64,000 nucleotides of DNA from Klebsiella phage phi1_146015, in sequence record PP889466.1, one strand, 5' to 3'. A program made the translations under genes and the position numbers. A model generated the notes under the pieces. It was given only the letters and a program-made list of their open reading frames with translations, made no database searches and was not told the origin of the DNA. Positions 31,841 to 31,929 of this stretch are shown here, in pieces. Within the stretch, counting starts at the first letter, position 1. Each line of letters starts with the position of its first letter.

Positions 31841-31929
31841 GATGATTTCCTTTTTGTCTGTTTCGTTTCGATGTGTGTAATATAACAAAAGCCCCTGGCG
31901 GTTGCAAGGGGCTTTTTAAACAAAAAGTG
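31841..31929 (-). promoter_or_regulatory. PeSL-like cassette (copy d), best-preserved copy
   Basis: − strand reads AAAAAGCCCCTTGCAACCGCCAGGGGCTTTTG-TTATATT-ACACACATCGAAACGAAACAGACAAAAAGGAAATCATC-ATG. TTGCAA, a 17-bp spacer, then TATATT. Confidence 0.65.

Follow-up and report, generated by a model that had tools for sequence, protein, structure and literature searches.

The spacer at positions 31841-31929 raises the question of whether a short sequence that recurs between small phage genes is a single composite regulatory element, ending one transcript and starting the next, and whether its repetition contributes to the exchange of the genes around it. The window analyzed here is a stretch of 64,000 nt from Klebsiella phage phi1_146015 (sequence record PP889466.1), to which all coordinates refer. 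Over the 8 kb around this spacer, which carries the copy designated cassette D, the DNA is 99% identical to Enterobacter phage PF-CE2 (Pseudotevenvirus, RB43 group, T4-like) and 94-98% identical to Pseudotevenvirus phages of Cronobacter, Klebsiella, Enterobacter and Citrobacter. The setting is an array of about 37 kb (approximately 3200-40160) that contains about 85 genes, most of them small and hypothetical and almost all on the minus strand, and is bordered by plus-strand baseplate and other late genes. A first-pass annotation had proposed that six minus-strand spacers of this array carry one module of about 65 bp, and had likened it to the promoter-early stem-loops (PeSLs) of T4-like phages.

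A repeated intergenic module in the minus-strand gene array

The existence of a repeated cassette family is confirmed. Each of the six spacers runs exactly from a stop codon to an ATG on the minus strand, and the six align convincingly. An nhmmer profile built from them and scanned over the window recovered exactly those six as full copies on that strand, with E-values from 3e-13 to 1e-20; these results bear out the proposal of a common module, whose conserved part extends over about 65-80 bp. The same profile found one half-copy at 31489-31528 (E = 0.0017). A core pattern, AAAGCCCTTGCN9GGGGCTTT with at most two mismatches allowed, occurs on the minus strand in every spacer but D (five of six) and in D on the plus strand only, against zero matches expected from 100 shuffles, and the Rfam covariance models gave no match anywhere in the window at gathering thresholds. 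All six cassettes lie inside the small-gene array and none in the late-gene parts of the window. They account for 6 of the 25 spacers of at least 30 bp in or at the edge of the array; among the remaining 19 are terminators and promoters that stand alone.

On the minus strand, the parts of every cassette come in the same order: the upstream stop codon, a run of five to seven A, a predicted hairpin of 9-13 bp, a run of three to six T and the -10 box, after which come a leader of 21-32 nt, a ribosome-binding site and the ATG (Table 1). The GC hairpin and T-run that had been attributed to every spacer are thus predicted in all six, whereas the placement of the -35 in the 3' stem arm was mistaken, the hexamer (TTGCGT, TTGCAA, TTGCAG or TTGCAT) occupying the 5' arm and loop. 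The proposed phasing held: TTGCNN-N17/18-TATATT/TATTAT is present in six of six, so the likeness goes beyond a generic terminator shape. Cassettes A, D, E and F have, from the end of the T-run, a TGT before the -10 box, which constitutes an extended -10 motif, while in the cassettes the A-run falls at about -40 to -46 and a C stands at -36. Of the conserved leader described in the first reading (ACACACATCGAAACGAAACAG), only D and E have an exact copy, A (ACACATATTGAAACGGAACAG) and F (GTCGAAACAAAGGAGG) have a partial one and B and C have none, and ribosome-binding sites of the GGAGG type occur in addition to the AAGGA type that had been proposed. Four further spacers had been listed as degenerate relatives. 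Only one of them, 31491-31561, is detected statistically, through its leader half; another, 10112-10178, bears a borderline resemblance, whereas 16723-16774 and 27480-27551 are unrelated in sequence to the family.

Table 1. Coordinates of the six cassettes and of related or neighboring features (window numbering; -35, -10 and +1 positions are predictions)
Feature	Position (strand)	Hairpin	-35	Spacer and -10	Predicted +1	Leader and further details
Cassette A	4172-4250 (-)	4245-4218; -18 kcal/mol	TTGCGT 4238-4233	17 bp; TGT + TATATT 4215-4210	near 4203	Leader ATTGAAACGGAAC...AAAAGGAAC; ATG 4171; E = 1e-20
Cassette B	15459-15542 (-)	15531-15502, same as hairpin of A	TTGCGT 15523-15518	17 bp; TATTAT 15500-15495	near 15488	Leader unrelated to that of D and E
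Cassette C	22316-22382 (-)	22381-22350	TTGCAA 22372-22367	17 bp; TATTAT 22349-22344, no preceding TG	near 22337	Slot-specific leader
Cassette D	31841-31929 (-)	31916-31887	TTGCAA 31907-31902	17 bp; TGT + TATATT 31884-31879	near 31872	Leader ATCGAAACGAAACAG; ribosome-binding site AAAGGAAA; ATG 31840
Cassette E	33566-33644 (-)	33637-33610	TTGCAG 33630-33625	17 bp; TGT + TATATT 33607-33602	near 33595	Leader ATCGAAACGAAACAG
Cassette F	37364-37430 (-)	37428-37399	TTGCAT 37420-37415	18 bp; TGT + TATATT 37396-37391	near 37384	Leader GTCGAAACAAAGGAGG
Half cassette	31491-31561 (-)	none		extended -10 (TGTTATTGT)		Leader ACACACATCGAAACGAAGGAGG; E = 0.0017
Promoter resembling the family	10112-10178 (-)	none	TTGCAT	N17; TATATT		Leader GTTGAAACGAAAC; E = 1.5
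Hairpin abutting a promoter	16723-16774	different hairpin	TTGACT	N16; TATAAT		Not of the family
Plain promoter	27480-27551		TTGACA			Not of the family
Gene downstream of cassette B	15264-15458 (-)					64 aa, MNTINVSK...

These regularities have to be weighed against the view that the spacers hold ordinary intrinsic terminators and promoters of independent origin, alike by constraint, with no common ancestor and no part in recombination. Separate signals of both kinds do exist in the array, with terminators at 9791, 24021, 27180 and 38616 and promoters at 17693, 27480 and 37134. Against independent origin, the likeness exceeds signal shape: A and B have identical loops and 22-nt hairpins, D and E have a 21-nt leader in common, and the nhmmer E-values reach 1e-20. 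We consider independent origin quite improbable, and the rearrangement at D and E described below counts further against it.

Several other features of the array were recorded. Two of the separate terminators, 9791-9832 and 27180-27215 (both minus strand), form a smaller second set of look-alikes, with a common hairpin GCCCCGAAAGGGGC followed by TTTTTTGT, no embedded promoter and a ribosome-binding site directly after. The hairpin and TTGACT-N16-TATAAT promoter at 16723-16774 belong to a 176-bp spacer (16599-16774, minus strand), which is followed by a short, strongly hydrophobic ORF (MNIKQIILTIFISLFFGFIGGFLGVLVIASVL; about 33 aa) that is unannotated and possibly encodes a small membrane protein. 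An insertion of about 750 bp at 11551-12301 places a plus-strand ORF (11578-12276, 232 aa) within the minus-strand array; it is not in PF-CE2, RB16, Lw1, leB or Miro, and in RB43 a plus-strand ORF of the same size, ORF128w, occupies that place. Beyond the array, the 199-bp divergent intergenic region at 40162-40360, between the gp3 gene (minus strand) and a plus-strand late gene, contains long inverted arms of GCGAAGCGA-type repeats on either side of an A/T-rich core with motifs resembling the late-promoter sequence TATAAATA.

The cassettes also bear on gene starts in their vicinity. Two PF-CE2 coding sequences, mapped to 31562-31888 and 33362-33622, have annotated starts that extend into cassettes: the start at 31888 is a TTG within the hairpin of cassette D, and the reading frame of the second is interrupted by a stop codon in the window. 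Translation more likely starts at the ATGs at 31840 and 33565, both of which have an AAGGA ribosome-binding site in front of them. Directly downstream of cassette F, a 46-aa ORF (37223-37363, minus strand) lacks annotation in PF-CE2, and the equivalent 141-nt gene is annotated in RB43 (ORF194c), RB16, Lw1, leB and Miro. The gene upstream of cassette C (22896-23081, minus strand) probably starts at an ATG near 23027, which would give it a signal-peptide-like N-terminus (MKKIIFAASIFLCSFSGNA); the PF-CE2 start at 22895 looks truncated, and RB43 Vs.1 is correspondingly longer (636 nt).

Apparent overlapping constraints on promoter and hairpin

On the evidence of their sequence, the cassettes are very probably composite terminator-promoter-leader elements of the PeSL type, belonging to the RB43/KP15 lineage of T4-like phages. 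In the mechanism that we propose, leftward early transcription by the host sigma-70 RNA polymerase would be terminated or attenuated at the 9-13 bp G+C hairpin and its U-run, and the same DNA would act as a promoter from which transcription restarts about 25 nt further on. The two functions would be interleaved base by base: the A-run may serve both as a 5' extension of the stem and as an UP-like A-tract at about -40 to -46, the 5' arm would provide the -35 (CTTGCN), and the T-run followed by G would provide the TG of the extended -10. G.U wobble pairs facing the fixed TTG would allow the RNA to fold and leave the -35 unspoiled. A short unstructured leader, often beginning with AUCGAAACGA at the predicted +1, and an AAGGA or GGAGG site would then drive expression of the next gene. 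Together with the other promoters and terminators of the region, the six cassettes would divide the array of about 37 kb into insulated, separately promoted units.

Conservation of these parts was assessed in 49 distinct cassette variants from 30 loci, drawn from the window, six relatives and IMG/VR contigs. The TTG of the -35 is invariant in 49 of 49 variants; 39 of them have a distance of 17 bp to the -10, 9 have 18 bp and 1 has 16 bp. The -10 box reads TATATT in 38 variants and TATTAT in 8, with TGn before it in 33 of 49. The -35 agrees with the consensus at just four of six positions, and the U-tract has just three to four uninterrupted U. A generic sigma-70 scan of the region showed no excess over shuffled sequences (37 vs 37.2; 34 vs 33.3), and the promoter calls therefore rest on conservation and not on the scan. 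Independent annotators of phage Miro had marked the cassette sites as terminators. A literature search found no transcript 5' or 3' mapping, no transcriptome and no reporter data for phages of the RB43 and KP15 types (Pseudotevenvirus, Slopekvirus).

As minus-strand RNA, the hairpins have predicted folding energies of -18 to -21.5 kcal/mol (z-scores -3.5 to -5.4), compared with -9 to -18.4 kcal/mol for the opposite strand, and the minus-strand fold is clearly better in five of the six cassettes. This strand difference arises because G.U wobble pairs face the T residues of the -35 TTG. The partners of the invariant TTG alternate between A and G or between C and T, and outside it the stem varies in a compensatory manner among the 49 variants, one pair being G-C in 33 and C-G in 14, a second C-G in 45 and A-T in 2, and a third A-T in 19, G-C in 6 and C-G in 8. 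In an ungapped MAFFT alignment the covariation score was 0.211 vs 0.175 in shuffles, a value exceeded by none of 500, and the score in the true register was higher than in every slid register. That alignment shifts the register of copies that have an additional C or a shorter loop, so that just 80% of cells appear paired, and folding each sequence separately gives a cleaner picture. Given the invariant TTG, the spacer of 16-18 bp and the compensating stem changes, promoter and RNA hairpin both appear to be under selection, and the cassette thus appears to be constrained as a DNA promoter and as an RNA hairpin at once. Such a dual constraint is the sequence-level signature expected of a fused terminator-promoter, from which we infer the two activities.

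The palindrome could instead be mainly a protein-binding site (AAAGCCCTTGCA...TGCAGGGGCTTT), as could the leader, with termination and initiation secondary; an early-transcription shut-off factor, a dedicated recombinase or an RNA-binding regulator of phage or host would be candidates. Arbiol et al. have speculated that a protein might recognize the GGGG...CCCC stem (PMC2839356). Because the stem changes by compensation and through wobble pairs, and folds better on one strand in five of six cassettes, an RNA structure is favored over a double-stranded DNA operator. With no candidate protein identified in the analysis, we regard the protein-site explanation as unlikely; its application to the leader is taken up below, and the fused terminator-promoter is retained as the reading of the hairpin.

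Age of the cassettes, published relatives and the leader motif

A 78-nt cassette sequence has 960 matching places in 195 phage records, nearly all of the RB43/KP15 type, with one to eight places per listed record. PF-CE2, RB43, RB16, Lw1 and the Slopekvirus Miro all have cassettes in the same six slots as the window, so the slots are conserved across two genera, Pseudotevenvirus and Slopekvirus. Between genomes, cassettes of one slot are 81% identical; within a genome, those of different slots are 59% identical. Stable slots and this difference in identity indicate that the cassettes are old residents and not recent insertions. Further copies occur elsewhere in the genomes of RB43, RB16 and Lw1, some on the other strand. 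An RB43-like genome represented by IMG/VR contig 2706796139_000001 has a tandem series of three cassette-type promoters (2100-2813, plus strand), spaced at about 350 bp; each has the same leader and precedes a very small gene, and the series falls beyond the part of that genome that is homologous to the window.

Multiple palindromic copies between genes, with more on both strands elsewhere in the genomes, are also what would be expected of MITE- or REP-like miniature mobile elements capable of autonomous insertion between genes. The occupation of the same six slots across two genera and the higher same-slot identity speak against this, as do the lack of target-site duplications, of terminal inverted repeats beyond the hairpin and of an associated transposase. 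No pair of empty and filled sites differing by one cassette and a target duplication was found among the seven genomes compared. Self-insertion of this kind is accordingly very improbable, and MITE-like mobility was rejected on the stability of the slots across genera.

PeSLs were defined in the coliphages RB49 and phi1 (Krischvirus) by Arbiol, Comeau, Kutateladze, Adamia and Krisch (2010; PMC2839356), who described five stem-loop positions, including between the -35 and -10 and overlapping the -35, and examined promoter and terminator activity through lacZ fusions. That paper mentions RB43 only for "PeSL-like sequences" near gene 43. Comeau, Arbiol and Krisch (2014; PMC4122927) extended PeSLs to PST/T4 and to the Vibrio phages nt-1/KVP40, the accessible part of that report dealing with these two pairs only. 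The identification of the present cassettes as PeSLs, suggested in the first reading, is supported by their sequence: a sigma-70-like promoter with phased -35 and -10 is predicted in all six, a stable stem-loop overlaps the -35 and fills the promoter spacer, and the intergenic layout of a stop codon in an A/T-rich tract, a Shine-Dalgarno sequence and a start codon recurs in six of six. Like PeSLs, the cassettes are repeated in a hyperplastic region of small genes, with six copies in the array of about 37 kb, and indels or replacements have breakpoints in or beside them (leB/Banach, slot B, and the edges of A, D and E; see below). Sequence kinship with the type phages is present over a common stretch of only about 15-25 nt, comprising the -10 and leader.

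RB49/phi1 PeSLs and the RB43-type cassettes have the same general plan: a stop codon in an A/T-rich tract, a sigma-70 early promoter, a G/C stem-loop with G-T pairs, a Shine-Dalgarno sequence with ATG, and multiple copies in arrays of small variable genes. Both carry the leader (C)ATCGAAACGAAAC, starting 7 nt after the -10. The Krischvirus cassette examined, at RB49 58484-58752 between ORF118c and ORF117c, is 99% identical in RB49 and phi1, has 9-11 places per genome in these two phages and reads TTGACA...CATAAT ACACCC ATCGAAACGAAAC. This copy differs in its near-consensus TTGACA...CATAAT promoter and in having a separate terminator hairpin upstream of an AT-rich block. In the RB43 type, unlike RB49, every copy has its hairpin built into the promoter, the -35 is a weaker TTGCNN, the TG of an extended -10 is usual and the family is much more uniform in sequence.

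The comparison with nt-1 is similar in kind. Its promoter consensus TTGYVH-N17-TAWWAT (PMC4122927) accommodates the RB43-type TTGCNN-N17-TATATT, and its stem consensus is A3-4G3-loop-C3T3-4, with A and T runs on either side. In the nt-1 spacer between ORF097 and ORF098, the leader ACATCGAAACGAGA stands in the same register (TATTAT AGCTAC ATCGAAACGAGA), whereas the hairpin of this example lies upstream of the promoter and not inside it, and host range and genus differ. For the same group as the present cassettes, Nolan, Petrov, Bertrand, Krisch and Karam (2006; PMC1524935) predicted RB43 early promoters, and terminators with TransTerm. Their promoter logo has a G at -33, G or C at -36 and an A-rich stretch from -40 to -44, with which the A-tract and the C at -36 of the cassettes agree; the paper lists promoters and terminators apart, without a repeated fused cassette, covariation or recombination products. 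Lambdoid morons (Hendrix et al. 2000, as cited in PMC2839356) are likewise described there as single genes with their own promoter and terminator and insulated expression, whereas their flanking signals are described as neither conserved repeats nor agents of exchange. Taken together, the RB43-type cassettes are a new sequence family of published PeSLs, real and largely expected.

The leader extends beyond the cassettes. The first base of the motif ATCGAAACGA(A/G)A stands exactly 7 nt past the -10 hexamer, at the predicted +1; the motif is found in the window at 31872-31860, 33595-33583, 4203-4191, 31511-31499 and 10140-10128. It is exact in D and E, occurs as variants in A (ATTGAAACGG) and F (GTCGAAAC), and accompanies three hairpin-less promoters of the window, at 31491, 10112 and 10369. 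At the same offset it recurs in RB49/phi1, in nt-1 and in the Aeromonas T4-like phage AsFcp_2. [quoted passage not shown] The -35 and spacer sequences of the phages that carry the motif are unrelated. Among carriers of the 16-mer unlike RB43/KP15, about 10 of 19 sequence families, grouped manually, have a -10-like hexamer at the exact offset, compared with a chance level of a few percent that was estimated and not computed. The string was not found in the searchable literature, and a 37-nt query had no leader match in 28 Gb of E. coli genomes, a negative that is uninformative for so short a query against so much sequence. A put-type antiterminator RNA, a possibility prompted by HK639, was rejected: some 70 nt separate the motif from the start of the annotated putL RNA downstream of it, and the leaders of the cassettes measure just 21-32 nt and have no stem-loops.

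The fixed distance of ATCGAAACGA from the -10 in unrelated phages with different -35 regions would fit sequence-specific recognition, as in the protein-site explanation considered above; B and C, however, lack this leader yet retain the rest of the cassette. We consider it possible, though less probable than not, that the first 10-15 transcribed bases, 5'-AUCGAAACGA(A/G)A, are a functional element in their own right. If so, such a conserved beginning of early phage transcripts, whether as a 5' end or as an initial transcribed sequence, could govern promoter escape, the stability of the 5' end or translation, or could be the target of a host or phage factor. In our view the recurrence across phages is the most interesting point of this analysis. 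It suggests a function of the first transcribed bases.

Recombination at the cassettes and gene turnover in the array

Direct repeats of 65-80 bp, the cassettes are substrates for homologous recombination, and comparison with the relatives shows that they do recombine: the products are a deletion between two cassettes, a gene swap that has one junction just after the hairpin T-run, and gene conversion between slots. Phage leB has a single cassette where the window has D and E, and lacks the five genes of window positions 31930-33565 (minus strand). Its cassette is chimeric, with an E-like 5' arm, a D-like loop and 3' arm and an E-like ribosome-binding site, and is followed by the gene that follows D. 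Since the fused junction occurs in just 3 of 173 matching records, representing the two phages leB and Banach, the deletion is rare and derived. An inter-cassette deletion that leaves a chimera has been described for RB49 ORF192 (PMC2839356), and the leB deletion is the expected genomic counterpart of mini-circle formation between neighboring cassettes. The view that the spacers merely hold independent signals is largely refuted by this chimera, which marks the loss of the D-E segment.

Slot B provides the case of a gene swap. Two unrelated genes occur downstream of the cassette, one of 64 aa in the window, leB, RB16 and Miro and one of 61 aa in PF-CE2, RB43 and Lw1, the latter bringing its own -10 and leader. 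The alleles part just after GGGCTTTTGT, between the T-run and the -10, and rejoin at the stop/start overlap with the next gene, and their distribution cuts across genome relatedness. Breakpoints inside the cassette, which the first-pass annotation had proposed to look for, therefore exist in the chimeric D/E cassette of leB and Banach and in this swap after the hairpin. In the window, PF-CE2 and leB, A and B have one and the same hairpin, whereas in RB43 and RB16 their hairpins differ; only in Miro is the hairpin of A nearly identical to that of C. This sharing between slots indicates gene conversion among cassettes. Further changes lie at the 5' edges: a flush insertion or replacement of about 660 bp at A in four relatives, the gene 31930-32178 at D, which is not in RB43 or RB16, and at E a gene of 309 nt vs one of 912-958 nt.

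Whether cassettes are preferred sites of exchange is a separate matter. When breakpoints were defined as net indels of at least 60 bp between the window and six relatives, they were found at 4 of 6 cassettes vs 41 of 78 other junctions (Fisher p = 0.41, a small sample), and at 4 of 6 cassettes vs 7 of 19 other spacers of at least 30 bp in the same comparison (p = 0.21). Enrichment was never significant at two indel thresholds, with or without Miro, as the independent-signals view would have it, and the preferential link to variable loci that belongs to the PeSL description is a weak negative here. Exchange does involve the cassettes, but neither a preference for them nor the earlier claim that they drive modular shuffling is demonstrable here. 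Most gene turnover in the array occurs at tight stop/start overlaps without a cassette. Two indels were recorded at plain gene junctions and not at cassettes: an AP2/HNH-type homing endonuclease gene present in PF-CE2 and Miro and missing from the window (25399-25456 vs 16923-17462 of the PF-CE2 locus L001), and a PF-CE2/leB block of about 1.1 kb that is replaced in the window near 14071-14950 (14945-14949 vs L001 5399-6489).

These findings extend PeSL-type cassettes to the large RB43/KP15 clade, with many phages of Klebsiella, Enterobacter and Cronobacter among the 195 matching records, and they temper the claim that such cassettes drive genome plasticity, most turnover in the array taking place at plain gene junctions. 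They also offer an example of compact dual coding, in which one stretch of about 40 bp is apparently both an RNA terminator and a DNA promoter, with wobble pairs showing how the constraints of the two are reconciled. In practical terms, the cassettes show where early transcription units are likely to begin and end, set right several wrongly called start codons in deposited genomes and point to sites at which genes could be inserted into or removed from engineered phages while sparing their neighbors.
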